Shown here: positions 1 to 28,255 of the stretch, one piece after another
How positions within the stretch are numbered: position 1 is the first letter of the stretch
Layout: every line of letters begins with the position of its first letter
Assembly (NCBI GenBank): GCA_045604925.1
Contig: JAZUOZ010000016.1
Span: 15,220 to 79,219, forward strand
From: Candidatus Nanosyncoccus sp.
GTDB lineage: Bacteria; Patescibacteriota; Saccharimonadia; Saccharimonadales; Saccharimonadaceae
Direction of reading: 5' to 3'
Length of the DNA: 64,000 nucleotides
The notes under the pieces: model-generated
The model's input: the letters and a program-made list of their open reading frames with translations, nothing else
Told to the model about the DNA's origin: nothing
Database searches by the model: none
Position numbers and translations under genes: made by a program

Positions 1-443
1 AGATTCTGTCTGGTGGCGTTACTCCAGAGGCAGCTCCGGCAAGTGATGCGGCAGCGCCAGCCGCTGAGGCTGCGCCAGTCGCACCAGAGGCGCCAGCTAT
101 GTCAGAGGTTGCTCCTGCAGCAGAGACCCCGGCTGCTCCTACTATTCAGCCAGCCGAAGTTCCAGTTGCTCCGGTTGAGACTGCACCAGCAGAGGCCAAT
201 ATCGCACCCGCTAATGGTGATTTGGCTTCTATCCGCGAGAATGTCATTAAAGACCTCTTGCCTCTGATGGACAAAGTTGATTCTTCTCCAGAGGAAAAGT
301 TTGAGATTTATAAAGATGCCATGAAAACTATGCACGATGCTTCGACAATTGGTGGCGCATATCGTACAGCGACCCAATTCTCTGATGAGTCAAAGAAGGC
401 CGATGCTCTGATGGATCTGATGAAGACCATCGACAACGCTTAG
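1..443 (+). CDS. Pro/Ala-rich hypothetical protein, 5'-partial
   Basis: ORF 99..443. The same frame has no stop back to the window edge and keeps the same P/A/E-rich composition, so the gene probably starts upstream of the window. A terminator follows. Confidence 0.5.
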   Translation, partial: ILSGGVTPEAAPASDAAAPAAEAAPVAPEAPAMSEVAPAAETPAAPTIQPAEVPVAPVETAPAEANIAPANGDLASIRENVIKDLLPLMDKVDSSPEEKFEIYKDAMKTMHDASTIGGAYRTATQFSDESKKADALMDLMKTIDNA

Positions 444-453
444 TCAAATAAAA

Positions 454-485
454 ATATCTGCATCGAAGTGGTGCAGATATTTTTG
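454..485 (+). terminator. Rho-independent terminator
   Basis: Stem atatctgca / tgcagatat followed by a T run. Confidence 0.7.
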
Positions 486-494
486 TGGAAGAAG

Positions 495-1244
495 CTATTC
501 CTCGGATTTTGACAGGCCCTCTGGGTCGTAATTGGCAATACCTTCGGCAATTTTCTCTGGAGTGATATGGAGAGCGTCAGCAATCGCGGCAGCAGCTGCC
601 ATATAGGAGACAGAGGTCTCTCCGTTTAGGAAGGTGGCAACGGTGAAGTTGACGTTGCCGATAGCAAGTGTGGCTTCGGCACCCATCTTATAGAGCTTAG
701 AGCGGACAATCTGGACATTGGAGAAGCGATCGGCACCGTAGGTAAGCGTACCCTGGCGGCCAGCGAAATCAGAAAAATCTGCATAGTGCGAATCATCACG
801 GTTCAACACGACATAGTCTGGCTCCATCTTAAACAAGGTTGATTCCCCAGAGACGTACTCAGATGAAGAAGGGTCGTTGAGGCCGGCTGGGACAAAATTG
901 GTCAAAGCAGCGATATGGACCGGAAGATTATAAAAAACGTCTTTTTGGATAGACTCTGCCGGGGCTGTGACCACGACGTAGTTAGAGCCAGCCTTCCAGG
1001 CTGTAGAGAGAAACTTGTGCAAGGCACCGATTTTGATCGAATCTTCTGATGCAAGGATGGCGACAGGGTGGCCAGCGCTTTTGAGGATCTCGTGGACGTA
1101 GTTTGCCACCTCAACTTTACCAGTGGTACCGGTAATGCAGATTAATTTCATGTCTTTGATAGGATGGCCATAAAAAGCGTCTAAAAATTTCGCTTTGAGC
1201 TTCCCTGTTTTGGTATTTGCGGTGGTGGTTGTATTGCTTGTCAT
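495..1244 (-). CDS. Mur ligase family paralog, central domain only, degenerate P-loop
   Basis: The layout matches a Mur ligase central domain. It has ITGTTGKV where GTNGKT is expected, then VVVTAPAES, AALTNF, VVLNRDD and FLNGETSVSYMAAAAAIA. The C-terminal domain is missing. The ATG at 1244 is preceded by tggag. Confidence 0.55.
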   Translation of the reverse strand: MTSNTTTTANTKTGKLKAKFLDAFYGHPIKDMKLICITGTTGKVEVANYVHEILKSAGHPVAILASEDSIKIGALHKFLSTAWKAGSNYVVVTAPAESIQKDVFYNLPVHIAALTNFVPAGLNDPSSSEYVSGESTLFKMEPDYVVLNRDDSHYADFSDFAGRQGTLTYGADRFSNVQIVRSKLYKMGAEATLAIGNVNFTVATFLNGETSVSYMAAAAAIADALHITPEKIAEGIANYDPEGLSKSEE

Positions 1245-1428
1245 GTTTACTCCAAATCTTCTTTGATTTAAGTATAGCATAAATTAGAAAAATATGTTAC
1301 AATAGTTGTGTCGCATTTTGCGATGCTCATTTAATTTCTAGGTGGAGAGATGAGACACGTCTAGACGCTGTCTTATCATTCCACATTTGCATTGAAGGCC
1401 CTAAAGGCTGGAGATGTACCATATAAGT

Positions 1429-1505
1429 GCGCCCGTAGCTCAGCTGGATAGAGCGTTTGCTTGCGGAGCAAAAGGTCGTAGGTTCGAATCCTGTCGGGCG
1501 TACCA
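1429..1505 (+). tRNA. tRNA-Arg, anticodon GCG as read by hand
   Basis: A cloverleaf folds by hand: acceptor GCGCCCG/CGGGCGT, D arm GCTC..GAGC, anticodon stem TTTGC/GCAAA with loop TTGCGGA, T loop TTCGAAT. CCA is encoded. Confidence 0.8.
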
Positions 1506-1521
1506 AAATTCGCATTAAAAT

Positions 1522-1541
1522 CACCCAATAGGGTGTTTTTT
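1522..1541 (+). terminator. Terminator after tRNA-Arg
   Basis: Stem caccc / gggtg with loop aata, followed by T6. Confidence 0.6.
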
Positions 1542-1635
1542 CGTGCTCGCTCGACAACAGGTCGCGCTTCGCACGGAGAAAACACCCTCTTGAGCGATTT
1601 TATCTGAGAATTATAAGGTTGTGTTTCGTTTAAGC

Positions 1636-1665
1636 TTGACAGAGGCGGCTTATTAGTGGTATGAT
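1636..1665 (+). promoter_or_regulatory. Sigma-70-like promoter for the surface protein gene
   Basis: TTGACA at 1636..1641, an 18-nt spacer, then TGgTATGAT with the -10 at 1660..1665. Confidence 0.5.
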
Positions 1666-1695
1666 GAAGGCATATTAATAATTGAGGAAGGTTCT

Positions 1696-2931
1696 ATGAA
1701 ACACTTTTCGAAACTCCTTGTAGCGACGCCAATTGTTGCTCTGGGGGGGGGTATACTCGTAAATAGTGCAGCTTTCACTGCACCATCTGCTAGCGCAGCT
1801 AGCCACACACTAACACAAAACAGCTTTACAGCTGCTATTGCAGGTACAGCGACAGACGGGGTCACCTGTGTCGCCGCCGATCAGTACTGTTTACTTGAGG
1901 CTGGCGACTACACACTCGGCGGCAATATTGATTTGACTGCTGCTACGGCCGGTGATGATTATGAGCTTTATTTTAGTACCGGAAACACTACTTTTGATTT
2001 GAACGGTAAGGCTCTAACTATGGGCGATTTTGCATTTATCGGTGGGGACGCGACAAATAAAACAGTTACCATTAAAAATGGTTCTATTACTGGTATAATT
2101 GCTCCTGTCTATGGCAGCTTCACTTTGTCTGGGCTTGAGTTTACTGGTGCGATTTCGGCAACTGCTTCAACCCTTAATATCGTGAGTGGTACTTATACTT
2201 CCGACAATAACCTTTCGGTGATTATGCCGGGTAATGATTCGACTATCAATATCTCTGGTGGCACTTTTAGCACTACTGGGTTTGGTATTCCGACCATCAT
2301 GATGAGCAATGACGAAGATGACACTACGAATACCTTGAACATCTCTGGTGGTACGTTTACTTCCACCTCTGGTGTAGCGATTGATCTAAATAACGAAGAA
2401 GGTTATGCTGAGGGTCCAGTAGTTGTGAACATCTCTGGCGGTTCCTTTACTGGTGCCAATGGTGGTCTTCACGTAATGGATCCGTCTCTTAACACCATTA
2501 AACTCACCGGCGGTACCTTTACTGCTACTGGTACCGATGATACCGCTGGTGCGATTGTCGCTTGGGATGGTCAGATCAGTTCTGTTCGTGGTTTCCTTGG
2601 TACAGGATATATGTACACGAATAGCACAATCACTACGAAACCTGTTTATGGTGGCGCTGTGAATGTCGCCTACATTGGTGGCACTACTACTGTCAAGTTG
2701 CCTGCTAGTGACGATGACGATGAGGAGGGCGCTACAACTGATGAGACCTCTTCTGAGACCTCTTCTGAGAGCTCCGAGAGCACTGAGAGCGTCGGTACGC
2801 CAGATTCTGGTCGTGTGACTAGCGAAGGTGGTTCTGCTACCGCGAGCGCACTAGCTACAGTTGGCGCTGCCACAGCAATTACCTCGGCGGCTTATCTTGC
2901 TAAGAAACATTTTGCAAAGAAGAACGCTTAG
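1696..2931 (+). CDS. Secreted repeat protein, probably beta-helix, with a sortase-like C-terminal anchor signal
   Basis: It has an N-terminal signal peptide and repeated ISGGTF(T/S) motifs, then an acidic Ser/Glu linker. The C-terminus has a TPDSG motif, an Ala-rich hydrophobic stretch and a KKHFAKKNA tail. Confidence 0.6.
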   Translation: MKHFSKLLVATPIVALGGGILVNSAAFTAPSASAASHTLTQNSFTAAIAGTATDGVTCVAADQYCLLEAGDYTLGGNIDLTAATAGDDYELYFSTGNTTFDLNGKALTMGDFAFIGGDATNKTVTIKNGSITGIIAPVYGSFTLSGLEFTGAISATASTLNIVSGTYTSDNNLSVIMPGNDSTINISGGTFSTTGFGIPTIMMSNDEDDTTNTLNISGGTFTSTSGVAIDLNNEEGYAEGPVVVNISGGSFTGANGGLHVMDPSLNTIKLTGGTFTATGTDDTAGAIVAWDGQISSVRGFLGTGYMYTNSTITTKPVYGGAVNVAYIGGTTTVKLPASDDDDEEGATTDETSSETSSESSESTESVGTPDSGRVTSEGGSATASALATVGAATAITSAAYLAKKHFAKKNA

Positions 2932-2960
2932 GATAATAAGAAGGTTCTCAATCAACAAAA

Positions 2961-2985
2961 ACACCCACAGATGTGGGTGTTTTTG
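2961..2985 (+). terminator. Rho-independent terminator
   Basis: Stem cacccaca / tgtgggtg followed by a T run. Confidence 0.7.
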
Positions 2986-2990
2986 GTATG

Positions 2991-3013
2991 AAAAAACCCG
3001 CGGGTTACGCGGG
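2991..3013 (-). terminator. Terminator for the minus-strand L,D-transpeptidase gene
   Basis: Stem cccgcg / cgcggg. The A6 on the plus strand reads as a T run on the minus strand. Confidence 0.6.
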
Positions 3014-3086
3014 TTATGTTAGTGCTTCTCGTCGGGTAGACGATGGCGCTATTATATTGTGGATGGCTCTGCCTGCTGAAAGTCTT

Positions 3087-3722
3087 TTAGACTATTAAGA
3101 CAGGCGTGCCAACTTCCACCATTTCATATAAGGTGGCTGCGTCTTCGTGGGGCATATTGATGCACCCATGGCTACCAGAGTGCCTGTATTGGTCGGTACC
3201 AAACTGTTCCTCCGGGCGCCAGGTGGCATCATGCAAGCCGACAGCGTCGTCAATAAACGGCATCCAGTAATCGACCCACACACATCCGCCATCAGATGGC
3301 CTTAGGTAGGTGCCTGGCCTTTTTCCTGAGTTAATATAGTACAACCCAGTTGGCGTCGGTGTGCCCCTGCCATTTTTATTGGTACCAGAGACGATACCTG
3401 TTTCAAGCTTCACCTGACAAACAGCTAGGTTGTCGGTAGGCTCTGCTCCTCTGGCAGCGTATAACATTTGTTCGTCGAGCTTAACCAGAACAAAAGTTTG
3501 GTAGCTAGCTACCTTGAGAGCTACTGCTTCGGCTTCGTCAGCCGCGGCGGCTTCCAGGATTTCTGGAGTGATTTCCATTTCGCCACTCCTTGTTTTTTCG
3601 GCATTCTCGTCGTTTTTTATTGCAGCAGTAGTCGTTGGTTCTGCGACGAGCAAGCAGCCCGCCAAACCTACGAGAACTACTATCGTGATTGGCAAGTATA
3701 GCCTCTTGATCTTTTCTTTCAT
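3087..3722 (-). CDS. L,D-transpeptidase (YkuD domain), membrane anchored
   Basis: The C-terminal motif HSGSHGCINMP matches the YkuD His / Ser-His-Gly-Cys active site. It has an N-terminal TM helix and a strong SD (aaggaggg). Confidence 0.8.
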   Translation of the reverse strand: MKEKIKRLYLPITIVVLVGLAGCLLVAEPTTTAAIKNDENAEKTRSGEMEITPEILEAAAADEAEAVALKVASYQTFVLVKLDEQMLYAARGAEPTDNLAVCQVKLETGIVSGTNKNGRGTPTPTGLYYINSGKRPGTYLRPSDGGCVWVDYWMPFIDDAVGLHDATWRPEEQFGTDQYRHSGSHGCINMPHEDAATLYEMVEVGTPVLIV

Positions 3723-3871
3723 AATACATCCCTCCTTGTATTATTGTTTTGTAAAGAACAAAACAAAACAAAAACAAAAACAACCTGTTTCAATAGTTAA
3801 TTATAGCATAAAAACTGTTTTTTGTCTACCCCCTTGGGGTGGTAAAGGTTTTATGGTAAAATAAGCATAAG

Positions 3872-5395
3872 ATGAATGGGCCAGCGGTGGAATATAGAGA
3901 TAAAAAGTTGCACGAAGAACTAGCAAAAAAGTTGACGAAGGCTTTACTTTCGCATGATAAGAAGTTTTTGACGCAGTACGAAGAACCAGAGGTCACGCCA
4001 GAGGAAAAAGAAAGATTTTTAAGGATGGTGTCTACGGGGGCCGTTTCGAAGAAAGATTTTGAGGAGATGGTTGGCGCAGTGGCTGTGCCTAAGGTGGCGG
4101 AGGTTTTCCCGACGATAGAGGGGGATAATTACAAGCGGCGGATTTTGGCCTATATGACAGGGGTAGGGTTTAATAATTTCCAGAATGTGACGGCTGAAAC
4201 AATCGACAAATTTTTAGAAAAATTTCCGCGCCCGAGTGATTTTGCCGCCGCGAAAAACGATTTTTTGGAGGCGATACGGCGGAGTAACACCGAGCAAAAA
4301 TTTGCAGAATATCAGAAAGAAATGGCCGAGCTAGAGGAGGCAGTCTACGGCGATAGGTGGCAGCTGACAAAGGCAATTGACGAAATAATGGCAGAGGCCG
4401 AAGATTGGCAGCTAAAGCAGGATGCGATCAAGCTGAAGGCTGAGTTTTTGGATCGGGCAAAAGTCGAAGGCGATTTGTGGATTCAACAGGGCTTAGCTTA
4501 TCAGCTGAAGCCTGAGTATCTAGAGCTGGTGGGGCTAGGGCCGCTGTTTCCGATGGAGATGGGGCATGTGAAGATGGCCTTTTCTAAGTCGTTTATGGTG
4601 GATACGCACGAGGCGATTGTGGCTTACGTAGCGTTTGACAATGCTGTGCGGGTGTGCGGATATTATCGTAGCAATTCTCAGGGGATGTGGCGGTATTTGC
4701 CAGATTATATTAACGGTAATGGCGAGATCGTGTGGTATGGGGTAGGGTTTAACGAAGAGAGCCTGACTCTGCCACTAAAAATTCAGAAGGAGCTGAACCG
4801 CATCGCCAAAAAATACAAGCAAGAGCTAAAAGGGGTGAATCCAGGGTTTTTCCTCGGTGGTACGGCTAAGAGATTTGATACCAAGGAAGAGTATCAGCGT
4901 CTGGTGCAATCTAGGCAGATGCCAGGGGCATATTACAAGGAGGTATCGATGGTGCCCAAGCTAGATTTTGGGGTGTTGTCGCCGCGTAAACATCCGCCGC
5001 AGAGTGTGGCGGTGCAAGGCGAGGCTGGCCCAGATTTCCGGCAGCAGCTAACATCGTATGAGATGGAAACGCGGATGTATGGTAAGGTGACGGTGCGGCA
5101 GTTCCCTTCGCATGATGATGTGCTGAGGTATTCGGTCTGCGAGGTGGGGAGCGGGGAAAACAAGCGGGCATGGATTGGCAGTATAGAGGTAAATGCCCCA
5201 ATTACTTCGACAGGATTGAAGCGCGAATGGGTCTCTACTGGCGATATTTGCACGCCGTTACTTGAGTATCAGACGATGGCGGGTGGATTTGGCACAGACG
5301 TGGGGCGGACGGATGGGTATCTTTCGATGTGGGAGAATTATCTAAGGCTGGCGCCGATTATTAAAGATTATTTGTTTGTGTGGCGTAATTACTAA
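3872..5395 (+). CDS. Hypothetical cytoplasmic protein, 507 aa, no family recognised
   Basis: A long ORF with coding-like composition. It has no signal peptide and no motif I can name. It lies on the 3' side of tRNA-Ser(CGA). Confidence 0.5.
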   Translation: MNGPAVEYRDKKLHEELAKKLTKALLSHDKKFLTQYEEPEVTPEEKERFLRMVSTGAVSKKDFEEMVGAVAVPKVAEVFPTIEGDNYKRRILAYMTGVGFNNFQNVTAETIDKFLEKFPRPSDFAAAKNDFLEAIRRSNTEQKFAEYQKEMAELEEAVYGDRWQLTKAIDEIMAEAEDWQLKQDAIKLKAEFLDRAKVEGDLWIQQGLAYQLKPEYLELVGLGPLFPMEMGHVKMAFSKSFMVDTHEAIVAYVAFDNAVRVCGYYRSNSQGMWRYLPDYINGNGEIVWYGVGFNEESLTLPLKIQKELNRIAKKYKQELKGVNPGFFLGGTAKRFDTKEEYQRLVQSRQMPGAYYKEVSMVPKLDFGVLSPRKHPPQSVAVQGEAGPDFRQQLTSYEMETRMYGKVTVRQFPSHDDVLRYSVCEVGSGENKRAWIGSIEVNAPITSTGLKREWVSTGDICTPLLEYQTMAGGFGTDVGRTDGYLSMWENYLRLAPIIKDYLFVWRNY

Positions 5396-5429
5396 GAATA
5401 TCCCTATAGGGATATTCTTTAATAATTCC

Positions 5430-5519
5430 TGGCGGAAGCGAAGGGATTCGAACCCCCGAACGGCGTAAACCGTTACACGATTTCGAGTCGTGCGCCTTCA
5501 ACCACTCGGCCACGCTTCC
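5430..5519 (-). tRNA. tRNA-Ser (anticodon CGA)
   Basis: The reverse complement folds with acceptor GGAAGCG, anticodon stem CACGA/TCGTG and loop CTCGAAA, a long variable arm, T loop TTCGAAT and an encoded CCA. Confidence 0.9.
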
Positions 5520-5695
5520 ACTTATTACTTTATCACATTTACCCCTATATTTCAACGGTGTGTGCTTTTCGCAAGAAGTTTCAAATTTTAGTGATATGAT
5601 TAGTTTGAGTTTTGCCTGCTCACTTTATTTTGTAATGTAATTTTTTGCTGAAAAAAGCGAGCTCTTTAGAGAGCGCTACAGTATTAGTAGAGTTA

Positions 5696-6243
5696 GGCAT
5701 CGCCATAGACTTAGGCATTGCCGTAGACTTTAGCCTCACCAGAGACTCTGGCATTGCCAAAGACGTCAGCATTGCCATAGACTTCAGCCTCGCCATAGAC
5801 TTCAGCCTCGCCAAAGACTTTGGCATCGCCACAGACTTCAGCCTCGCCAAAGACTTTGGCATCGCCGTAGACTTTAGCCTCACCAGAGACTCTGGCATTG
5901 CCAAAGACGTCAGCATTGTCATAGACTTCAGCCTCGCCATAGATTCTGGCATTGCCGTAGACTTTAGCCTCACCAGAGACTCTGGCATTGCCAAAGACGT
6001 CAGCATTGCCATAGACTTCAGCCTCGCCAAAGACTTTGGCATCGCCAAAGACCCAGGCATCGCCATAGACTTTGGCATTGCCGTAGACTTCAGCATTGTC
6101 ATAGACTTCAGCCTCGCCAAAGACTCTGGCATTGTCATAGACTTTAGCATCGCCAAAGACGTCAGCATAGCCAAAGACTTCAGCATTGTCATAGACTTCA
6201 GCATCGCCGCAGACACAGGCAGCATCATAGACCTTAGCCGCGT
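5696..6243. repeat. 18-bp periodic coding tandem repeat
   Basis: An exact 55-bp block gccgtagactttagcctcacc...cagcattg occurs at 5720, 5864 and 5954. The spacings are 144 and 90 bp, both multiples of 18. Several frames on both strands stay open. Confidence 0.9.
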
Positions 6244-6418
6244 CACTAATCCAGCATAACCCATAGTGCGACAGGTTGTCTTCGGATTCAATGTAGCCTC
6301 CAAGGTCGCCCTTTTTGACATCTCCAAAGTCTCTGACGGCCCTTATGCGATGCAATCTATGGCCACTAAATTCGATGCTGTCACTTTCTGCTAATTCATA
6401 TTTCTTGTTCTTGCTCAT
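5711..6418 (-). CDS. Hexapeptide-repeat (left-handed beta-helix-like) protein
   Basis: A roughly 60-aa non-repeat N-terminus (KYELAESDSIEFSGHRLHRIRAVRDFGDVKKGDLGGYIESEDNLSH) is followed by about 30 units of [GD][DEN]A[EKR]V[YFS]. The ATG at 6418 is preceded by aaaggggtg. The track start at 6427 is a GTG. Confidence 0.7.
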   Translation of the reverse strand: MSKNKKYELAESDSIEFSGHRLHRIRAVRDFGDVKKGDLGGYIESEDNLSHYGLCWISDAAKVYDAACVCGDAEVYDNAEVFGYADVFGDAKVYDNARVFGEAEVYDNAEVYGNAKVYGDAWVFGDAKVFGEAEVYGNADVFGNARVSGEAKVYGNARIYGEAEVYDNADVFGNARVSGEAKVYGDAKVFGEAEVCGDAKVFGEAEVYGEAEVYGNADVFGNARVSGEAKVYGNA

Positions 6419-6530
6419 AATGTGCACCCCTTTTTTTTGAACATTGGTCCCAATGAATGTATTTTGAACCTATTTATATTGTGCCGTATTTTTGTAATTT
6501 TGTCAAATGAGACCACCGGACCTGTCCGCG

Positions 6531-6570
6531 AACGGCTTGGGGATTTGAATCCCTTCGCTTCCGCCAGGAA
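6531..6570 (+). pseudogene. tRNA-Ser(CGA) 3'-half fragment (att-like)
   Basis: 6547..6570 (gaatcccttcgcttccgccaggaa) is the exact reverse complement of 5426..5449, which is the tRNA 3' end plus 4 flanking nt. A degenerate match to the T arm and variable arm continues upstream. Confidence 0.8.
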
Positions 6571-6572
6571 AA

Positions 6573-6600
6573 AGAGCGACAACTTGGTCGCTCTGATTTT
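6573..6600. terminator. Bidirectional terminator hairpin
   Basis: Stem agagcgac / gtcgctct, flanked by an A run on one side and a T run on the other. Confidence 0.65.
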
Positions 6601-7514
6601 TAGAGGGGTTGTAAAATGTTTGTTATTAGTTCACGTTTTTTGGAGATATCCGTACTGCCCATAAATTCGTAATAGAAATTGATGGTATCTCTCTGACTCA
6701 AGGTGCCGTAGCTTGGCGCGATCATCCCAAATTTGTTGATTAGTTCTTCACGTTCGCCGAACCAAGAGAAATAGATTTTTTGGAGAACTTGGTCATCAAG
6801 CTCAGATAATGTGGAAATGAAATCTGCATGCGTTGGTGGAGATATCTTGCCTTGTTGGTATAATTCATATACGTATGTCCCTGGTTTAATATGAAGTAAG
6901 AAAGCAACTATCTCTTCGGCGCCGATTTCATGAGCCCAGTTACAGGTTCTAATGAAATCATGTCGCATATAGTCTTGGTCTACGTCCCAAATTCCGAATA
7001 GAACATTCAGAGCAGTACGCATATTGTATCCATGGATTAATCTTACGGCTTCTTTTATGGTATACGTTTTTAGGCTTTTGCCGATGATATTTTCAAGTAC
7101 ATATTGATTACTACTCTCGAGCCCCATTTCAATAGTGATATTTTTCTCCGGTAGTTCTTTTCTCAGAAAATTCAGATTTTTCACATTGATAGTGTGAGCA
7201 TGAGTTTCAATATATATATCCTTAGCTCTGGCATAGCTAATGCGTTTTAATACGGTAGAGACAATTGACCGTGGTATTTCACGTTCATCAAGGATGCTGC
7301 CATTGCTTCCGATTAAAATTCGTTTTGATCTTGGGAATTTCCGGATAGCCCGATCGACAAATTTTACTGCATTAGACAATGTCGGATTATTTTCGCCACC
7401 ATAGTTACACATTTTGCAATAACCGTGCTGTTGGTAATAGCAACCTGGCCCATTCAGATTAATTTGCAATGTTCCATTTTGCTTATAGAAAACTTGGACG
7501 TCTTTATTATGCAT
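6600..7514 (-). CDS. Radical SAM domain protein with a non-canonical CX7CX2C cluster motif
   Basis: Motifs GPGCYYQQHGYCKMCNYG, then GSNGSILD, IYIETHAH and ITIEMGLESS, fit a radical SAM TIM-barrel layout. Strong SD (aaggaggggg). Confidence 0.6.
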   Translation of the reverse strand: MHNKDVQVFYKQNGTLQINLNGPGCYYQQHGYCKMCNYGGENNPTLSNAVKFVDRAIRKFPRSKRILIGSNGSILDEREIPRSIVSTVLKRISYARAKDIYIETHAHTINVKNLNFLRKELPEKNITIEMGLESSNQYVLENIIGKSLKTYTIKEAVRLIHGYNMRTALNVLFGIWDVDQDYMRHDFIRTCNWAHEIGAEEIVAFLLHIKPGTYVYELYQQGKISPPTHADFISTLSELDDQVLQKIYFSWFGEREELINKFGMIAPSYGTLSQRDTINFYYEFMGSTDISKKRELITNILQPL

Positions 7515-7586
7515 AAAATAACCCCCTCCTTTTAAAGGACAACCCCCTAGTTAATTATAAAATAAATAATGGTATTTGTCTAGTAT

Positions 7587-7620
7587 GGTTCGAACTTCAT
7601 CCAGACACTTCCGCCAGGAA
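7587..7620 (+). pseudogene. Second degenerate tRNA-Ser 3' fragment (att-like)
   Basis: ggttcgaa (T loop) followed by cttccgccaggaa. The 13-mer at 7608..7620 is identical to 6558..6570. It overlaps the last codons of the peptidase-like gene. Confidence 0.6.
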
Positions 7621-8124
7621 GTCTATGTATTTTGATGCTGTTTTCGCGAGTTTGTCGAAGTCGTATCCTGAATCTGCTGGAGGTAGGTGGATAAATACCA
7701 TTTTTATATTTAGCGCATTGTCCTTTGCGTATTTTTGGCCAAAATAGTATATGTTGTTGCAGAGATAATTTCCGGCGTTTTCAGACACCGTGGACTTAAT
7801 GCCATTATCTCCCAAAAACTTGCGGAGTCTATTTATTTGGAAGGTGGTTTTTATCTGTTTCTCATCTTTGTGAGCCGTCGTCTCGATAGTAATTTGGGCA
7901 CTATTTGGCTTTTGTCCAAAAGCTAAAATATATCTGAACTCGCCTTTTTCGATTTTGTTTTCTAGTTCTTTTTCACTCGTAATGAAGCTATTTGTTAACT
8001 CTAGAAAATCTGTATTTTTCGCTCGTATTTTATGTAAAAGCAAGGAAGATGAATTCGTTTTACCTTTGAAGGCAGTCACTAAAACATTTGGGTAGCTAAC
8101 AGCGTGTTTAGTTATTTTTTCCAT
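7597..8124 (-). CDS. Compact pyroglutamyl-peptidase I (C15)-like protein
   Basis: NVLVTAFKG, QITIETTA (Glu), NAGNYLCNNIYY (Cys) and VFIHLPP (His) line up with the C15 Glu-Cys-His triad. The first ATG is at 8124, 9 nt after TGgTATAAT. Confidence 0.6.
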   Translation of the reverse strand: MEKITKHAVSYPNVLVTAFKGKTNSSSLLLHKIRAKNTDFLELTNSFITSEKELENKIEKGEFRYILAFGQKPNSAQITIETTAHKDEKQIKTTFQINRLRKFLGDNGIKSTVSENAGNYLCNNIYYFGQKYAKDNALNIKMVFIHLPPADSGYDFDKLAKTASKYIDFLAEVSG

Positions 8125-8237
8125 ATACAATAAATTATACCAAAATATATGGGGATATTGTGCATGGCTGTAGTGTTTTAGCTATAATGTGTAAATCTGG
8201 TATAATCGCGGCGTGGTATAATAGGGTAAAGGAATAC

Positions 8238-10766
8238 ATGATGAAAAAGTTCTTTTCAAAAAATCTGGTTTTCCTTCTAACATGTGTGTTTTTTGTCGGT
8301 GTCTTGCTCACTGGCGTTTTTTTGGCTAATACGGCTTTTGCTAACAACACTAAAAGCGACGATGAGATTAAGGTGCGTACCGAGGTTGATAATAGCAACA
8401 TCGCTGGCAGTAGCCATAGCTCTGATGATGCCGAATTTATCGATGGCGGGCTAATCGTGAAGGCCGAGAGCGAGGCCGAGGTAGAGCCCTATGGCGAGGT
8501 CACTAAGGTGGCGGAGCATTTTTATATCGTAGAAACAGATAATGCCGAGGCGGCGGAGGACGCGGCCGAGAATCTCGAAGAAAACCCAAAAGTCCAGATT
8601 GTGTTGCCGAACATCAAGCTAAAGACCCAATCTATCCGTGCGCCAATGTATTACTCCTGGGGTACTGCCGCTACGGGCGCCGATCATTACACCGACTGGC
8701 TGAACTATTTAAAAGATAAGGGACAGGACCCAAATAACATCGTGGTGGCTGTTTTGGATAGCGGAATTTGGAGAGATCACGAGGTTTTCTTTGATGATGA
8801 TGGCAACAGTCGCCTCTGTGAGGGTGATCTAGCAAATTATGCCAGATGGTATTCTTATCATAACGATACCTTGGCGGTCTATGATAATGTTGATGATGTT
8901 GATGGGCATGGCACTAACACCGCTGGGATCGTCGCGCAGGCTACCCCGAGCAATGTCTGTATCATCCCGGTAAAAGTCACGGAAAATGGCGAGGGCGATT
9001 TGGTCAGTCTGGTTCAGGCGCTGGCTGATGTCACCCCTGTGGCAGATGTGGTGAATATGAGCCTTGGTGCCTCAGATAGTGAGTTTGATGCCGAATATAA
9101 GGAGCTGTTTGACGATTTTTTGGCAGAACTGATCGGAGACCATCCGGTGACTCTGGTCGCTTCAGCTGGTAATGATAACGAGAGTGCCGTCTCCTTCCCT
9201 TCTTCGCTAGAGCACGTGATTAGTGTCTCTGCACTGAGAAAGAGCGGCAGTAGCTACGTTTTTGATAGCAGTTACTCTAACTATGGTGCTGGAGTCGCTT
9301 TCTCGATGCCTGGTACGAGTGTGTTGGTGCCGGCTTCGGAACTAGCCCCGGGCGGCTATTATTATGAAACTAGTAGCGGTACATCTTATTCTTCGCCGCA
9401 TTTGACTGCTACGGCGGCGCTGCTGCGGTCAGACTCAGAGTATACTTATACGAGTACGACTGATTTTGCGAGCCAAAGCGATGTCTTTGCTGGTCTGAAA
9501 AAATACGCGACTTATCTTGGCTCGAGTAGTTCAAAATGGGACAAATACTACGGCTATGGGATGGTCGATTTTGGCACAAATATGTTTTCTCCTGGCCGGA
9601 TAAACGCTACTGTTGCACTGGCCACTGATGGTAAATCTGCCACCATCTCTGGTTTTGCGATGGGTGCAGACCAGATTACAGCGTACGCTGTGACTGATAG
9701 CACCATCACTCCATCGAACTGGACTAGCGTGAGCAGCACTGCCTATGGCTCATCTTATGTTGCAGAGAATTTGAGTTCGACTGTTTTCGAAGATGGCACT
9801 TATTATCTCTGGCTAAAGGACAAAAATGGCAAGACAGGTTACGCCACGGTTGAGGTCAGTGGTGTGGAGTTCGAGCAGCTGATTGCTGATGGCATCTACA
9901 TTGTGCATTCGGCGTTGAATAATAGCAAAGTGCTTGATGTTGCTGGGGCTAGCGATGGCAACACAGCCAATATCCAGCTTTATGACAACAATGGCAGCGC
10001 CGCGCAGAAGTTTATCTTCCGCCATCTAGGCAATAATACTTACCAGATAGAAAACCTGAAATCTGGGAAGGGGATTGATGTGGCCGGAGGCAAGACTGGT
10101 AATAACGCGAACGTTCAGCAATATGCCGCCAACTCGACTTGTGCGCAAAAGTGGCATGCCAAGAAGACTATCGATGGCTATATCTCTTTTGTCTCGACGT
10201 GCGGCGGGCGGTATCTTGATATTGCTGGTGGCAGCACCAAAAACGGCGCCAATGTCCAAATCTATGGCAGCAACGGTTCTAAGGCGCAAAAATTTGCCGT
10301 AGAAGCCTTCCAGCGGGCCCCAGAAGGCCAGTTAGTCGCAAATGGCACATATAGGGTGGTTTCGGCATTGGCAGCGGATAAGGTGCTGGATATTAGCGCT
10401 GGTAGCCGTAATAATGGGGCGAATCTCCAGCTCTATAGCAGCAATAATTCTAATGCGCAAAAGTTTAATATCACCTATCTAAAAGACGGGTTTTATAAGA
10501 TCAGCAACGTTGGCTCGGGGAGGGTGGTTGATGTATCTGGGGCTGGGTTGAGAAATGGTACTAATGTCTGGCAGTATGCCTGGAATGGTTCTATTGCCCA
10601 ACAATGGATGATCGTGAAGACTGCGGATAATTATTACACCTTTGTTTCTAGGTGTAATGGCTTGAGTCTCGATATTGCTGGCGGTAGTACTAAAAATGGG
10701 GCTAATGCTCAGATATACGCTAGAAACGGCACCAAAGCGCAGAAGTTTGCGCTGGTGAGGGTTTGA
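8238..10766 (+). CDS. Secreted subtilisin-family (S8) peptidase with two C-terminal ricin-B lectin modules
   Basis: Catalytic Asp-His-Ser in VAVLDSGI, DGHGTNTAG and SGTSYSSPH. A signal peptide follows MMKKFF. The C-terminal half has repeated Q-x-W/F beta-trefoil motifs (AQKF, AQKW, AQQW). Confidence 0.85.
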   Translation: MMKKFFSKNLVFLLTCVFFVGVLLTGVFLANTAFANNTKSDDEIKVRTEVDNSNIAGSSHSSDDAEFIDGGLIVKAESEAEVEPYGEVTKVAEHFYIVETDNAEAAEDAAENLEENPKVQIVLPNIKLKTQSIRAPMYYSWGTAATGADHYTDWLNYLKDKGQDPNNIVVAVLDSGIWRDHEVFFDDDGNSRLCEGDLANYARWYSYHNDTLAVYDNVDDVDGHGTNTAGIVAQATPSNVCIIPVKVTENGEGDLVSLVQALADVTPVADVVNMSLGASDSEFDAEYKELFDDFLAELIGDHPVTLVASAGNDNESAVSFPSSLEHVISVSALRKSGSSYVFDSSYSNYGAGVAFSMPGTSVLVPASELAPGGYYYETSSGTSYSSPHLTATAALLRSDSEYTYTSTTDFASQSDVFAGLKKYATYLGSSSSKWDKYYGYGMVDFGTNMFSPGRINATVALATDGKSATISGFAMGADQITAYAVTDSTITPSNWTSVSSTAYGSSYVAENLSSTVFEDGTYYLWLKDKNGKTGYATVEVSGVEFEQLIADGIYIVHSALNNSKVLDVAGASDGNTANIQLYDNNGSAAQKFIFRHLGNNTYQIENLKSGKGIDVAGGKTGNNANVQQYAANSTCAQKWHAKKTIDGYISFVSTCGGRYLDIAGGSTKNGANVQIYGSNGSKAQKFAVEAFQRAPEGQLVANGTYRVVSALAADKVLDISAGSRNNGANLQLYSSNNSNAQKFNITYLKDGFYKISNVGSGRVVDVSGAGLRNGTNVWQYAWNGSIAQQWMIVKTADNYYTFVSRCNGLSLDIAGGSTKNGANAQIYARNGTKAQKFALVRV

Positions 10767-10783
10767 TAGGCTATAATAAGGTT

Positions 10784-11161
10784 ATGGAAGAAAGTATTTT
10801 TACGAAAATTATCAAAGGGGAGATTCCTTGTTACAAAATCTACGAGGATGATAAGACTTTAGCGTTTTTGGACATTGCGCCAGAGGTGATGGGGCATACG
10901 CTAGTGGTGCCCAAAATCCAAGTAGACAAGATTTATGAGTTGCCGGATGATGACTATCAGGCTCTAATGGCGACCGTGAAAAAAGTTGCAATTAGAATGG
11001 AAAAAGTGTTAGGCAAACGGCCGATTATGAAAGTGATAGGAGTAGATGTTCCGCACGCACATGTCCATGTGATGCCTTATAGCGCTGAGTGGAAAGATGA
11101 GGTTGTTTTAAAGCCGACAGAGGCGGAGATGCAAGAAATTTGCGATAAGCTGGCATTTTAG
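10784..11161 (+). CDS. HIT family (histidine triad) hydrolase
   Basis: HAHVHVMP histidine triad and FTKIIKGEIP N-terminus. The ATG lies 6 nt after TATAAT. Confidence 0.85.
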   Translation: MEESIFTKIIKGEIPCYKIYEDDKTLAFLDIAPEVMGHTLVVPKIQVDKIYELPDDDYQALMATVKKVAIRMEKVLGKRPIMKVIGVDVPHAHVHVMPYSAEWKDEVVLKPTEAEMQEICDKLAF

Positions 11162-12421
11162 CTATTTGTTGAGGGGGTTTTGACCGATAGCGTAGAGGAA
11201 TCTTTGCCAGAGCGAAGGCTGAGGCGAGATTGGCGCGGACTCAACTGGGTATTCTGATGACGCACTACCGATGGTGATTTTGAGCGTGCCCTGGATATTA
11301 ACAGGGTCAACAGAATTGATGGATTTTGCTAAATCAGATGGGTTAGGTGAGGCAGAGGTGTCGGAGGAGCCAGAACCATCATTCATCACGACCTCGGCAG
11401 TTTTCTCCGCAGAACTCCAGCCAAGGACTGAGGCGTCTTCAGTAGCGGCAACTTCTACTTTGCCCGTCCACCAGCTATCGTAATAACCGACCTCTTGGCC
11501 TTTAGCTAAAACAGCGGTTGGAGTGAGGTTCTGCTGGAGTTTTTCGACGAGGTCTTGGCTAATGACAAAAGATTCGGCACGAGTGTCGGCATTGAGAGCA
11601 GCGATAGTGATGATATGGCCATCTTGGAGATAGGCAACAACCAAACAATAGCCGGACTCGTCGCCGATATAGCCGGTTTTAACACCGATAATGTTATCTG
11701 TGCCGAGTAGTTTATTAGTGTTCTCGATTGTGCCAGCCAGAGGTGCATTATAAGATGATAAACCCACAATCTTGGCAAGAGTCGGATTTTCCATCAGCTT
11801 ATGGCCAATTTTGGCTAGGTCCGAGGCGGTACTAGTGGTGCTATCGGAGAAACCACTGGCATCGCTGCCGATAATCGTGTCGTTAATTCCCCACTCCTTT
11901 AGCTTATCTGTAGCGTAGGTGCGATAGTTGTCAAGATCGCCAAAAGCCCAGATCGCCAGGCTGTCGGCCATGTTGTTGCTAGATGGGAGCATAGTGGTGG
12001 CTAAAGCGTCGTATTCGGAGAGGGTGCTGCCTTCGGTCATTGGTGTGGTTGAGCCATCAATAGAGGTATAGTAGGTATAGCGACTGTACATTTCTGGGGT
12101 GATAGTGATGGTTCCACCCTCGGTACCGAGTTCAAAAGGCTTTTTATCTATCACCATAAGAGCGAGGATCATCTTGGCGGTGCTGGCAGCGGGCTGAGTA
12201 GTTTGGCTGTTGGCATAAACAGGGGTGCCATCAATGGCAATGGCATATTTTATATTGGCATAAGTCTGACTACTAAAGATATCTTCTAGGTTAACAAAAT
12301 CGGGTAAAGAATAAGTGGGGCTAAAAGATAGATTAGAGGGCGCAGTGGCCATTCTAAAGCCGATGAATCCCCCAGCGATAATTAGGGTAATAAAGATAAG
12401 TGTGAGGAGTCTTTTAAGCAT
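11162..12421 (-). CDS. D-alanyl-D-alanine carboxypeptidase (S11, PBP5-like)
   Basis: SxxK (STAK), SxN (SSNN) and KTG (KTGY) motifs in the expected order, with an N-terminal TM anchor. Confidence 0.8.
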   Translation of the reverse strand: MLKRLLTLIFITLIIAGGFIGFRMATAPSNLSFSPTYSLPDFVNLEDIFSSQTYANIKYAIAIDGTPVYANSQTTQPAASTAKMILALMVIDKKPFELGTEGGTITITPEMYSRYTYYTSIDGSTTPMTEGSTLSEYDALATTMLPSSNNMADSLAIWAFGDLDNYRTYATDKLKEWGINDTIIGSDASGFSDSTTSTASDLAKIGHKLMENPTLAKIVGLSSYNAPLAGTIENTNKLLGTDNIIGVKTGYIGDESGYCLVVAYLQDGHIITIAALNADTRAESFVISQDLVEKLQQNLTPTAVLAKGQEVGYYDSWWTGKVEVAATEDASVLGWSSAEKTAEVVMNDGSGSSDTSASPNPSDLAKSINSVDPVNIQGTLKITIGSASSEYPVESAPISPQPSLWQRFLYAIGQNPLNK

Positions 12422-13532: not shown

Positions 13533-13614
13533 GAGGCTTTTTTAGGGCTGGGGGGGGGTTGTTTTTTGATATTGAGTATGATATTATATAATCAGAAAGT
13601 AGGAAAGTAAGAAA

Positions 13615-13878
13615 ATGGTAGTAACAATACGAACAAAATCACAATTAACCCTTCCAAACAAAATTGTCAAAAACCTTGGTATATCTGAGGGTGATGAATA
13701 CGAAGTTGTTGAGCGAAATGACGGAAGTATTTTGCTAATACCGGTCGTTACTTATCCAAAGGCATATGTTGATAGCTTAAAAGCAGAGGTTGAGAAAGTA
13801 AAAGTTGAGGTGAAGAAGGGCAAAAAGCCGGTTTTTGCCTCTGTTGATGAAATGCTAAAATATATGGAGAATAACTAG
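13615..13878 (+). CDS. AbrB/SpoVT-type antitoxin
   Basis: N-terminal swapped-hairpin-like sequence QLTLPNKIVKNLGISEGDEYEV. Its stop overlaps the toxin start by 1 nt. Confidence 0.65.
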   Translation: MVVTIRTKSQLTLPNKIVKNLGISEGDEYEVVERNDGSILLIPVVTYPKAYVDSLKAEVEKVKVEVKKGKKPVFASVDEMLKYMENN

Positions 13879-14144
13879 TGAGTTATTCCCTGACCTTTTC
13901 TGACAAATTTCAGAAACATTTTTGTGGGTTTCAGGAAAAACAGAAAAAGCAGATCCAAAATAAACTAAAAATTCTATCCGAGAATCCAGCTCATCCTTCC
14001 CTTCGAACAAAGAAAATTAAGGGTACCGACTCTATCTGGGAGATGAGTGTTAATATGGACATCAGGATTATTTTTCAATTTGATGGAGATACGATTATTA
14101 TTCTGATTGATATTGGGCATCACGATATTTTGAGAAAATTTTAG
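13878..14144 (+). CDS. RelE/ParE-superfamily toxin
   Basis: 88 aa with FxKxFxK...LxxNPxHPSLxxKKIKG...WExxVNxDxRIIF, as in RelE/YafQ-like toxins. It is coupled to the upstream antitoxin. Confidence 0.65.
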   Translation: MSYSLTFSDKFQKHFCGFQEKQKKQIQNKLKILSENPAHPSLRTKKIKGTDSIWEMSVNMDIRIIFQFDGDTIIILIDIGHHDILRKF

Positions 14145-14181
14145 TTGACGTTGTTTTTGGATATTTTACCAATATAGGCGT

Positions 14182-14487
14182 TTATTCTTTCGAGAAAAAT
14201 TCAGAAATCGGCACATCCAGAGCGGTAGCAATTCTGCCAAGCACGCCGATTGAAACATGTTTTTTGCGACTATCGTTCTCTATATCACAGATGTATTCGC
14301 GAGAGATGTCGGTTAAATCAGCTAATTGTTGCTGGGTTAGACCTTTAGATTTTCTAATTTTCTTTATGTTTTTTCGCACCAAAATGTAATACTTTTCATC
14401 ATCAAAGAAGATAGTTTTTTGATAGTATTTTCTCCTGGTTTCTTTCATTTGGGATAACTCTAAGTACTTACTTCTATTTTGGAACAA
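14182..14487 (-). CDS. XRE-family HTH transcriptional regulator
   Basis: KGLTQQQLADLTDISREYICDIENDSRK helix-turn-helix. The start codon is uncertain. Confidence 0.7.
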   Translation of the reverse strand: MFQNRSKYLELSQMKETRRKYYQKTIFFDDEKYYILVRKNIKKIRKSKGLTQQQLADLTDISREYICDIENDSRKKHVSIGVLGRIATALDVPISEFFSKE

Positions 14488-14512
14488 AAAACCGTTTTTA
14501 TATATAGGCTGA

Positions 14513-14567
14513 TAGCCACATTTATGATAGAATATGTGTTATAAATATGTGCTAGTAGCCACATTTA
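14513..14567. promoter_or_regulatory. Putative operator repeats in the XRE / FemAB divergent region
   Basis: The 12-mer tagccacattta occurs at 14513..14524 and 14556..14567. An imperfect inverted repeat cacatttat / ataaatatgtg lies between them. Confidence 0.4.
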
Positions 14568-14579
14568 ATTGGAGGTAGT

Positions 14580-15656
14580 ATGGAGCTAAAAGAGATTTCT
14601 GAAAGTGATTTTTCCAGTTTTATTAGAGGAAAAACATCTAATAATTTTTTACAGAGCGTGGAAATGTTCAGGCGGTATAAGGATATAGGTAGAGAGGCCT
14701 ACTTGCTCGGCGGGTTTTCGAGGAACGAACTCAAGATTGCTGCCCTGGTTTATTGCATGCGCGATATTATGGGTTGGAAAATATTCAATATGGCAAGGGG
14801 TCCGATTGTTGATTTTGAGAAGAAGGCAAGTTTCAGATATCAGAAGGATTTTTTGGAAAAGTGTGCGGAGTTACTAAGGCAAAGAGGTGGCGCCGTTTTG
14901 CAAATTAGCCCGAATTATTATCGTGAACTTGCGGATGATATGTTTAATGATGATGAAATCCCCTCTTGGGCTGAAAAGCAAAAGTTTGATGATCTTTATG
15001 GCAAAATAGGGTTTGAATATCTTGGGGAGTATGGGCAAATTAAATGGGCATATTTTAAAAGACTGGATGCTAAAAATGATAAGATGAAACAATCGTTTAG
15101 GGAGGGCCATAGAAGATCTATCAGGTATGCCACTAAGCGTTACGGTATGAAGGTGCGAGATCTTGGTTTGGACGAGCTGGAGGTTTTGACGAAACTTGTT
15201 AATGAGGCGGGGAAAAGACACGGGTTTATCGGTCCAGACATGGCATACTATAAATCTATGAAGAAATATTTTTCTGACGCTGTTACTTTTGCTGTAGCAG
15301 AAGTAAGCAGCGGTGATAAGAAAACGTCGGCCGCAGCTGGTATGTTTATAGAGTATGGCAACGAGATGATTTATTTATTTGGCGGATCGCATGTTGGCGG
15401 AAAAGAAGTAGCTTGTGGTCCTGCCCTTTTGCAGTGGAGTATGATGCAAAAAGCCGCGGACGATGGTATTTTGAACTATAATTTTTATGGCACGCACCCA
15501 TTTAGAGATGCTGCTGATTTTAGCGTCTATAATTTTAAAAGAGGTTTTAGGGGTGTGATGGTGGAGTATATCGGAACTTACGCTAAACCGTTGAACCTTG
15601 TGGGAAGATTTTTGGTAAAGAAAATAGGTAAGGCAGAGTATAGGGGTGTTGGTTAG
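14580..15656 (+). CDS. FemAB-family peptidoglycan interpeptide-bridge aminoacyltransferase
   Basis: About 350 aa with the NFLQS motif near the N-terminus and a later YLFGGS-type motif, typical of FemX-like enzymes. Confidence 0.7.
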   Translation: MELKEISESDFSSFIRGKTSNNFLQSVEMFRRYKDIGREAYLLGGFSRNELKIAALVYCMRDIMGWKIFNMARGPIVDFEKKASFRYQKDFLEKCAELLRQRGGAVLQISPNYYRELADDMFNDDEIPSWAEKQKFDDLYGKIGFEYLGEYGQIKWAYFKRLDAKNDKMKQSFREGHRRSIRYATKRYGMKVRDLGLDELEVLTKLVNEAGKRHGFIGPDMAYYKSMKKYFSDAVTFAVAEVSSGDKKTSAAAGMFIEYGNEMIYLFGGSHVGGKEVACGPALLQWSMMQKAADDGILNYNFYGTHPFRDAADFSVYNFKRGFRGVMVEYIGTYAKPLNLVGRFLVKKIGKAEYRGVG

Positions 15657-15761
15657 GACGACTAGTGGCTATTCCCTATTTCCTGGTGATTTTTCAACAA
15701 TCGAGCGGTGATGCATCAAACTGTAGCTCTTGTGGTATAATAAAAAGATAATCGGAGATTT

Positions 15762-27980: not shown

Positions 27981-28083
27981 GAAAAGTAAGTCCTACTTTG
28001 TGGTTGGCGGAGTAGAATATCACCCATGACGTTAGTGGTCATAGTTTTACTTATCCGGGGTTTTGTGATAAGATAAAGAGGAC

Positions 28084-28174
28084 GGAAGGGTGGCCGAGTG
28101 GTTGAAGGCGCACGCTTGGAAAGCGTGTAAGGGGGCTAACCTCTTCGCAGGTTCGAATCCTGTCCCTTCCGCCA
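28084..28174 (+). tRNA. tRNA-Ser (anticodon GGA)
   Basis: Acceptor GGAAGGG, anticodon stem CACGC/GCGTG with loop TTGGAAA, a long variable arm, T loop TTCGAAT and an encoded CCA. Confidence 0.9.
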
Positions 28175-28232
28175 AACTTTGACAGGCCAGAAGCGCGAAG
28201 CGGTTCTGGGCGGGTTTCAGGAAATAAAAAAT

Positions 28233-28255
28233 TGAGAGCTTGCTCTCATATTTTT
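28233..28255 (+). terminator. Terminator after tRNA-Ser(GGA)
   Basis: Stem tgagagc / gctctca followed by a T-rich run. Confidence 0.6.

Follow-up and report, generated by a model that had tools for sequence, protein, structure and literature searches.

Copies of the tRNA-Ser(CGA) 3′ end and probable gene capture beside an inverted tRNA gene in a Saccharibacteria genome

Introduction

Why is the 3′ end of a tRNA gene repeated between the genes beside it, and why does the intact gene point against its own copies? The question is raised by tRNA-Ser(CGA) in a stretch of 64,000 nt from Candidatus Nanosyncoccus sp. (contig JAZUOZ010000016.1), here called the window, the whole of which was covered by our repeat and recombinase searches. 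A gene of 507 aa to the left of the tRNA (3872-5395), our anchor gene, places the window in the Saccharibacteria (TM7). A preliminary description of this DNA had read the locus as serial integration at a tRNA attachment (att) site that left three single-gene cassettes and a segment that may be invertible. Our own reading, to which we give a probability of about 70%, is that cassettes lacking integrases accreted at the tRNA and that a one-off inversion then turned the tRNA around.

The nearest reference genome is a Candidatus Nanosyncoccus metagenome-assembled genome (L001), whose anchor protein is 78% identical to that of the window; a far closer strain (L010) has an anchor protein 98% identical and shares DNA at 93-98% identity. 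Exact-protein look-ups with the anchor and radical SAM proteins found no second assembly of the window's strain, and a metagenome scan with the anchor protein found no further one. A second metagenome scan, with the conserved 5′ half of tRNA-Ser(CGA), gave at least 120 further loci among the matches listed, on contigs that may be chimeric; the hotspot counts below (over 108, 112 or about 118 loci, and over 775 kb) are among these listed loci. tRNA genes were called with ARAGORN and Rfam and gene families with Pfam and NCBIfam, while promoter and terminator calls are consensus matches alone.

Results

Copies of the tRNA 3′ end separate the genes of the array

The tRNA, its signals and the copies of its 3′ end are arranged as follows.

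5391-5557, minus strand: native tRNA unit (promoter, tRNA-Ser(CGA), GGAA flank, terminator hairpin), inverted relative to the nearest relatives
5394-5419, strand not assigned: the tRNA's own terminator, a perfect 13+13 hairpin (inverted repeat I13) that overlaps the anchor-gene stop codon
5426-5449, minus strand: left arm of the perfect 24-nt inverted repeat, made up of the 20 nt at the tRNA 3′ end and the flanking GGAA
5430-5519, minus strand: intact tRNA-Ser(CGA) with encoded CCA (ARAGORN; Rfam RF00005, 57.6 bits), identical to the L010 tRNA
5527-5555, minus strand: putative tRNA promoter, TTGAAA, 17-nt spacer, TAAAGT (consensus match)
6531-6570, plus strand: copy 2, a tRNA-Ser(CGA) 3′ fragment, exact over 6547-6570, with T-arm similarity that decays upstream
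7587-7620, plus strand: copy 3, direct to copy 2, whose 13-nt core (7608-7620) is exact and follows a T-loop-like arm borne by the cassette

ARAGORN and Rfam agree with the preliminary description on the intact tRNA gene. The exact inverted pair that it had pointed out was verified by reverse complementation (5426-5449 against 6547-6570); chance would give about 7e-6 exact pairs of this length in 64 kb, and the repeat reaches 32 nt at 94% identity (5426-5457 / 6539-6570). tRNA-like similarity of copy 2 extends back to 6531, as first described, in a blastn comparison with the L001 tRNA (6531-6566, 89%). The 13-nt core CTTCCGCCAGGAA occurs exactly three times in the window, at 5426 on the minus strand and at 6558 and 7608 on the plus strand, against an expectation of 0.04. 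The last of these belongs to copy 3, already recognized as a decayed direct repeat of copy 2, which also carries a GGTTCGAA remnant at 7587-7594. The placement of both copies among the genes was likewise borne out: copy 2, shaped like an att junction between two cassettes (arm, core, arm), separates the beta-solenoid gene from the radical SAM gene and adjoins the hairpin/terminator at 6573-6594, and copy 3 overlaps the last codons (FLAEVSG*) of the C15-like open reading frame at 7597-8130 on the minus strand, whose last 8 codons it encodes.

The core and flank of copy 3 (7607-7622) form the dyad ACTTCC-GCCA-GGAAGT, which may be the core site of a recombinase. In many of the listed loci the native flank after CCA is GGAAGT, which pairs with the acceptor strand CTTCC to give a dyad centred on the discriminator and CCA.

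Three genes make up the array.

5711-6418, minus strand: YdcK-type beta-solenoid (hexapeptide-repeat) gene with an 18-nt repeat (Pfam, NCBIfam; repeat family D1)
6571-7607, minus strand: radical SAM cassette, G+C 0.37 (homology to L134, G+C profile, signals)
6600-7514, minus strand: radical SAM gene, within the cassette 6571-7607
7597-8130, minus strand: peptidase C15 (pyroglutamyl peptidase)-like gene of low G+C, with Cys and His motifs kept

The strongest evidence for the boundaries comes from the radical SAM cassette. An independent copy of this gene in another locus (L134), 71% identical, aligns with the window over 6570-7605 alone, the T-loop-like arm included, and its flanks are unrelated. 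Since this interval runs from the end of the copy 2 core to the start of the copy 3 core, the repeats mark the cassette boundaries. Within these limits lie a bidirectional terminator (6573-6594), a promoter (7554-7582) and the arm with the GGTTCGAA remnant. The earlier view of the array as three single-gene cassettes thus stands for the radical SAM gene, which is bounded by cores, and is weakened for the C15-like segment, which has no right-hand repeat; a search for further degenerate cores bounding the C15 or S8 segments gave two 2-mismatch matches in the window (10675, 51994), within chance expectation. Copies 2 and 3 bracket the radical SAM cassette as mutual direct repeats, yet both are inverted relative to the intact tRNA.

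The cargo of the array is of foreign origin. G+C is 0.35-0.38 across approximately 6600-8250 and 0.48-0.51 on both sides, and each array gene has its own promoter-like site and terminator; those of the beta-solenoid gene lie at 6478-6506 and 5661-5674, respectively. The best homologue of the beta-solenoid protein, 48% identical, is in a phage-like contig, and a search of approximately 125 related tRNA loci found none. In the INPHARED phage collection neither the radical SAM nor the C15-like protein had a match. For the radical SAM protein, whose best matches are RaSEA (3e-24), MnmL/YtqA and a queuine lyase structure, a large protein collection holds just 11 homologues, in at least four contexts. 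Homologues converge on tRNA-Ser(CGA) in three loci (L005, L006, L008) and on tRNA-Met and tRNA-Ser(UGA) in two (L002, L003), a truncated gene converges on tRNA-Ser(CGA) in another (L135), and one homologue (L009) has no tRNA nearby.

Two side observations concern these genes. The 18-nt solenoid repeat runs on in frame past two stop codons (5620-5713, …VYGNA*VYGDA*), and because of this continuation a nonsense change appears to have shortened the beta-solenoid gene recently. A radical SAM enzyme that is rare and akin to enzymes of tRNA and 7-deazaguanine modification recurs 3′-to-3′ with tRNA genes (in the window, L002, L005, L006 and L135); this placement may reflect the choice of integration site alone, and its coincidence with a tRNA-related function is worth noting.

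The closest relatives lack the three genes

Synteny in related genomes shows empty and differently filled sites at tRNA-Ser(CGA). The preliminary description would have been contradicted by relatives carrying the same three genes without tRNA repeats; what the closest relatives show is the absence of all three. In L010, L001 and a third locus (L075) the anchor gene, tRNA and HIT are retained and none of the three is present, and the tRNA-to-HIT interval of L010 holds a hairpin/terminator spacer and a CLC channel gene, nothing else. The S8-lectin gene described below is also absent from L010 and L001.

The difference from L010 has sharp limits. Identity is 100% up to 5386, where homology ends; it is 83-84% for HIT and, for S11, 77-86% as far as approximately 11960 and at least 97% beyond. 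The interval from 5387 to about 11960 is, on this profile, a divergent and probably exchanged block, with the following limits and further gene.

5387-11960, no strand: block strain-specific or divergent relative to L010 (inverted tRNA unit, three foreign genes, S8-lectin gene, divergent HIT, half of S11)
8160-10766, plus strand: S8 subtilase with ricin-type lectin repeats, in the strain-specific block, of normal G+C and without bounding repeats

tRNA-Ser(CGA) is an insertion hotspot across the clade

The pattern seen in the window recurs widely. A direct copy of the acceptor 3′ strand lies within 330 nt downstream of tRNA-Ser(CGA) in 46 of the 108 loci with enough sequence under the looser test, and an exact 11-mer copy lies downstream in 34 of 112. 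Among about 120 related loci as a whole, 30-38% carry a direct copy of the tRNA 3′ end in the 400 nt that follow it. Over 775 kb the 9-nt acceptor core has 42 direct occurrences, of which 41 fall 0-400 nt beyond the 3′ end of the tRNA, with about 3 expected per strand. The copies carry the tRNA's own T-stem variant and form arrays in several loci; copies upstream of tRNA-Ser(CGA) were never seen in the listed loci. The same pattern is found at tRNA-Arg(GCG) (6/76) and at tRNA-Ser(GGA) (2/6).

Comparison of close relatives shows how the copies arose. One locus is an empty site in which tRNA-CCA-TAAA leads straight into the native flank (L039), while two others have the same flanks and a precise insert of approximately 207 bp, the last 23-25 nt of which copy the tRNA end (L029, L103), and four more have a further partial unit added (L032, L036, L049, L132). 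Since close relatives differ by this precise insert, the copies are insertion products. Other empty sites are L069 and L040, and in L075 the order is anchor gene, tRNA, about 100 bp, HIT. HIT lies near the tRNA in 66 of the listed loci; 57 of these match HIT over its full length, and in them the two genes are 53 bp to 5.2 kb apart. In two loci (L028, L116) a 358-aa tyrosine integrase of the Phage_integrase family lies immediately 3′ of tRNA-Ser(CGA). These sequence comparisons show tRNA-Ser(CGA) to be a clade-wide insertion hotspot in Saccharibacteria. The serial integration at a tRNA att site first proposed for the window is well supported by the hotspot copies, the empty and filled sites, the integrases, the gene-free closest relatives and the coincidence of cassette boundaries with cores.

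The copies might instead be functional parts of a conserved tRNA-Ser transcription unit, such as terminator or processing modules or acceptor-end decoys, that were rearranged in the window. Their high frequency and their match to the tRNA's own stem variant would suit such a role, as would an upstream 10-mer complementary to the copy in some spacer families, but near-identical genomes differ by the precise presence or absence of spacer and copy, and more than 60% of the listed loci lack a copy, several of them with HIT starting 50-70 nt after the tRNA. Moreover, the spacers belong to unrelated sequence families, and the pattern is repeated at tRNA-Arg. We regard such a role as improbable, and conserved spacers at a second tRNA, which bear on it in both directions, are taken up below.

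Three observations on the hotspot stand by themselves. The copies fall into two classes, long (T-loop to CCA, 17-26 nt) and short (acceptor strand to CCA, 9-13 nt). One spacer family (L041, L108, L124 and similar loci), 100-130 nt after the tRNA, has GCGAGAGGAT approximately 80 nt upstream of, and complementary to, ATCCTCTCGC of the tRNA-end copy, and also a GGTTCG motif; it may be the structured arm of a miniature element. One locus (L023) has a second, inverted tRNA-Ser(CGA) 13.8 kb away at the contig end (882-969 and approximately 14760-14854), either a real inverted duplication or an assembly artefact.

The tRNA gene of the window is inverted relative to its nearest relatives

In L010 and L001 tRNA-Ser(CGA) lies on the strand of the anchor gene, opposite to its orientation in the window. 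In a neighbour-joining tree of the approximately 120-aa HIT protein, the tRNA points toward HIT in each of the five loci nearest to the window and away from HIT in the window alone; the orientation in the window is therefore derived. The other two tRNAs of the window are on the plus strand, which has a G-C skew of +0.20.

Two geometries of inversion can be considered. The one that best fits the comparative data is a flip of the tRNA unit of about 170 bp at 5391-5557, which would have carried the tRNA with its promoter and terminator. This interval aligns contiguously with the tRNA and downstream terminator of L034, L020, L114, L046, L050 and others, and no alignment passes its ends. Its terminator flank is homologous to the tRNA flank of L034 (score 36, against at most 24 for shuffles); the same promoter layout is seen by eye in L001 and L010, with nucleotide homology covering just about 19 nt upstream of the tRNA. 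An independent case of the same kind is found in L120, where, relative to L106 and L108, the tRNA unit is flipped in place between colinear flanks and without an inverted repeat. If the unit flipped in this way, the 24-nt inverted repeat would be a consequence of the inversion and not its cause. The alternative geometry is recombination between the inverted copies, flipping 5450-6546. It is less economical because it needs an orphan inverted att copy beside the anchor gene, which integration does not make.

Three other origins of the arrangement were considered and set aside. Homologous recombination between the inverted CGA and GGA tRNA genes would change the orientation of neither tRNA. A 15-nt inverted match (5357-5371 / 5412-5426) that could have served as microhomology is AT-rich and about chance-level. 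Misassembly is unlikely, as the repeat (24-32 nt) is below typical final assembly k-mers.

The second geometry leads to the most dynamic explanation of the locus, in which a recombinase encoded elsewhere reversibly flips 5450-6546 between the present, attB/attP-like state and an attL/attR-like one. In-silico inversion of this segment yields an identical tRNA at 6477-6566 on the plus strand, followed by GGAA and a terminator and oriented as in relatives, and so reproduces the intact tRNA near the hairpin that the preliminary description had foreseen. A switch of this kind would account for the exactness of the inverted repeat over 24 nt, shared core included, for a tRNA that is identical and has promoter and terminator in both states, and for a present state in which a native-type flank adjoins the tRNA and copy 2, with its order of arm, core and arm, resembles an attP; in the clade, moreover, the tRNA has changed orientation at least four times and integrases that use the tRNA-Ser(CGA) site exist. 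Against it, no recombinase was found in the 64-kb window by Pfam analysis of the neighbouring genes or by tblastn with two recombinases from relatives' tRNA sites, which agrees with the earlier report of no integrase there. None of the approximately 118 other listed loci has an inverted partial copy, so that the inverted pair of the window is unique among them, and the other flips in the clade move the whole tRNA unit without an inverted repeat. The flipped state, with its orphan inverted attR by the anchor gene, would not be an ordinary integration product. Finally, the tRNA and the beta-solenoid gene each keep promoter and terminator inside the segment, so that expression would not evidently change on a flip. 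A working switch is not supported by the evidence, and a live invertible segment seems unlikely to us; we hold a similarly low expectation that the inverted pair is a substrate for a trans-acting integrase. What survives of the proposed invertible segment is that an inversion did occur in this lineage and that the flip rebuilds the tRNA; the missing recombinase, the lack of other inverted partial copies or of an effect on expression, and the better fit of a tRNA-unit flip speak against the rest.

A second tRNA-Ser shows the same phenomenon

28339-28357, plus strand: copy 4, which repeats the 3′ end of tRNA-Ser(GGA) (28084-28174) directly over 18 nt and lies 165 bp downstream of the gene

Copy 4, which the preliminary description had missed, contains a 1-mismatch core at 28345-28357 and repeats at a second tRNA what is seen at tRNA-Ser(CGA). 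After tRNA-Ser(GGA) comes a conserved spacer, here termed D-type, with a cGAAg hairpin, the terminator gagagcttgctctc and a second cGAAg hairpin, and then copy 4; the genes flanking this module (26811-27989, 28506-29332) abut directly in L001. D-type spacers lie after tRNA-Ser(CGA) in L001 (12946-13060) and L010 (11796-11950) and after tRNA-Ser(GGA) in the window (28175-28310), at 74-75% identity, and that of L010 ends in 'cccttcc', a GGA-type acceptor remnant. The distribution of these spacers suggests past exchange between the two tRNA-Ser loci.

These spacers offer an argument for a functional role of the copies, since their cGAAg hairpins and terminator are approximately 75% conserved between distant genomes, with changes that appear compensatory by eye; in D-type units, though, the copy lies beyond the terminator and would normally be outside the tRNA transcript.

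They also bear on a different proposal, that the fragments are relics of duplicated tRNA-Ser genes reshuffled by homologous recombination between the CGA and GGA paralogues (inverted, 22.6 kb apart), with no site-specific integration. The homology of the spacers after tRNA-Ser(CGA) in L001 and L010 to that after tRNA-Ser(GGA) in the window fits this proposal, as does the GGA-type remnant in L010; neighbours of tRNA-Ser(CGA) in L001 lie near tRNA-Ser(GGA) in the window, and the tRNA begins with the same 5 nt as its flank, GGAAG. Unlike decayed whole tRNAs, however, the copies have a sharp start, in the T-loop or acceptor strand, and what lies upstream of it is unrelated; the polymorphism of the insert of about 207 bp is precise; cassette boundaries match cores; and recombination between the inverted genes would presumably leave both tRNA orientations as they were. 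We consider relics improbable, slightly more so than a functional role for the copies. A decayed second tRNA as the source of spacer and copy was rejected, the spacers having no similarity to tRNA.

Other strain-specific segments of the window

An element of L010 (positions 1-7703, at least 7.7 kb) encodes a 545-aa serine recombinase and a Toprim primase besides seven small open reading frames. Its end, GGCGTACCA, corresponds to the final 9 nt of tRNA-Arg(GCG), and in the window the site, at 1505/1506, is empty. A strain-specific islet of about 2.2 kb (13545-15726; G+C 0.34-0.38) carries small open reading frames where L010 has 36 bp. A 411-aa open reading frame (1696-2931, no Pfam match) has an interior (1716-2775) that cannot be aligned to the 383-aa gene of L010 and ends that are both 98% identical; by this comparison the gene is hypervariable.

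Discussion

Our analysis suggests the following model for the locus. The 3′ end of tRNA-Ser(CGA) would serve as an attB used across Saccharibacteria: incoming circular DNAs would bring a copy of the tRNA 3′ end, recombine with the tRNA and rebuild it, and the displaced 3′ end would stay as a repeat at the far side of the insert. Repeated events would pile segments beside the tRNA by accretion. In the lineage of the window the original stack of direct repeats may have run tRNA, beta-solenoid gene, copy 2, radical SAM gene, copy 3, C15-like gene, and would have comprised at least the phage-like beta-solenoid and radical SAM genes and probably the C15-peptidase-like gene; a single later inversion would have turned the direct repeat of tRNA and copy 2 into the 24-nt inverted repeat. 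The order of these events, the acting recombinase and the geometry of the inversion are what we infer. Because each cassette has its own promoter and none has an integrase, the cassettes resemble cis-mobilizable elements served in trans.

Several points weigh against this model. Simple integration cannot yield copies that are inverted relative to the intact tRNA, so that an extra event has to be assumed, and the failure to find a recombinase in the window counts here as well as against a switch. The absence of a right-hand repeat at the C15-like segment and the normal G+C of the S8-lectin gene leave the limits of the insertion events, and their number, uncertain. The approximately 75% conservation of D-type spacers between L001 and the window hints at selection and fits junk remnants less well. 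A search for a free attP, with the 19-nt tRNA 3′ end in viral contigs, matched complete tRNA-Ser genes in phage tRNA arrays alone, and no viral contig was found to carry a relative of the L028 integrase. Lastly, the whole block 5387-11960 may have come from another lineage by homologous exchange, in which case the events may lie outside the direct ancestry of this strain.

The closest analogue is provided by the ssrA islands of Dehalococcoides, tandem low-G+C islands downstream of a single-copy small-RNA gene, each bounded by an approximately 20-bp direct repeat of the 3′ end of that gene (McMurdie et al. 2011, PMC3146451). Insertion there is in the T-loop, the integrase is a serine recombinase of about 540 aa, and some islands have no integration module and are read as cis-mobilizable and gained by accretion (PMC3146451). 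The 545-aa serine recombinase of the L010 element at tRNA-Arg is of similar length to this integrase. In contrast to the ssrA islands, the target in the window is a tRNA-Ser and not a transfer-messenger RNA, there is no integration module in the window, the units are tiny (about 1 kb for single genes, 50-210 bp for gene-less inserts), the repeats are in the opposite orientation to the intact gene, and the host has the ultra-small genome of an epibiont. Cis-mobilizable elements (CIMEs) that have lost integration and transfer genes and kept attL and attR, and tandem accretion of the type seen with integrative and conjugative or integrative and mobilizable elements at tRNA 3′ ends, are described in Streptococcus (PMC5704250). 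The array would fit this model; unlike CIMEs, these loci show no conjugation or mobilization genes, and the inverted layout lies outside it.

Looser parallels exist. Serial integration at archaeal tRNA genes reportedly leaves partial tRNA copies that partition trapped foreign blocks, as She and colleagues are said to have described in 2001; our case differs in its bacterial host and in having no integrase remnants by the cassettes, whereas archaeal integrases of the SSV type are split on integration. The array is like integron arrays in its mostly single-gene foreign units, its short recombination-site repeats, its fixed chromosomal site and the expectation that the newest unit lies nearest that site. 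An integron was nevertheless rejected: there is no IntI, attI or attC, the repeats are tRNA-derived and the cassettes carry their own promoters. In Hin, Gin and Fim-type switches and in shufflons a DNA segment is bounded by short exact inverted repeats; the window shares exact inverted repeats (24 nt) with Hin/Gin/Fim switches and differs in having no adjacent invertase and no swap of promoter or coding end. A further reading is a tRNA-anchored, integron-like capture system, in which trans integrases shuttle units from 50-bp gene-less inserts to single genes at the tRNA-Ser 3′ end and the same enzyme reversibly inverts the 24-nt att pair (attB/attP to attL/attR and back), flipping an essential single-copy tRNA together with a phage-derived, surface-type repeat gene. 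We think this doubtful, more so than a live invertible segment by itself and less so than a functional role for the copies. Gene capture at a tRNA is of a well-known type, and it is the tiny integrase-less units and the inverted tRNA that set this locus apart.

In Saccharibacteria, whose genomes are very small and keep a strongly conserved gene order, the gain of genes is little understood. Our data identify the interval between tRNA-Ser(CGA) and HIT as a place where foreign DNA, tiny integrase-less units included, has entered repeatedly across the clade, and thus as a concrete locus at which strain-level gene flux in these epibionts can be tracked. As a local rearrangement, the inverted layout is of modest interest in itself unless it is shown to switch, while CTTCCGCCA with its flank is a candidate att site for genetic tools.

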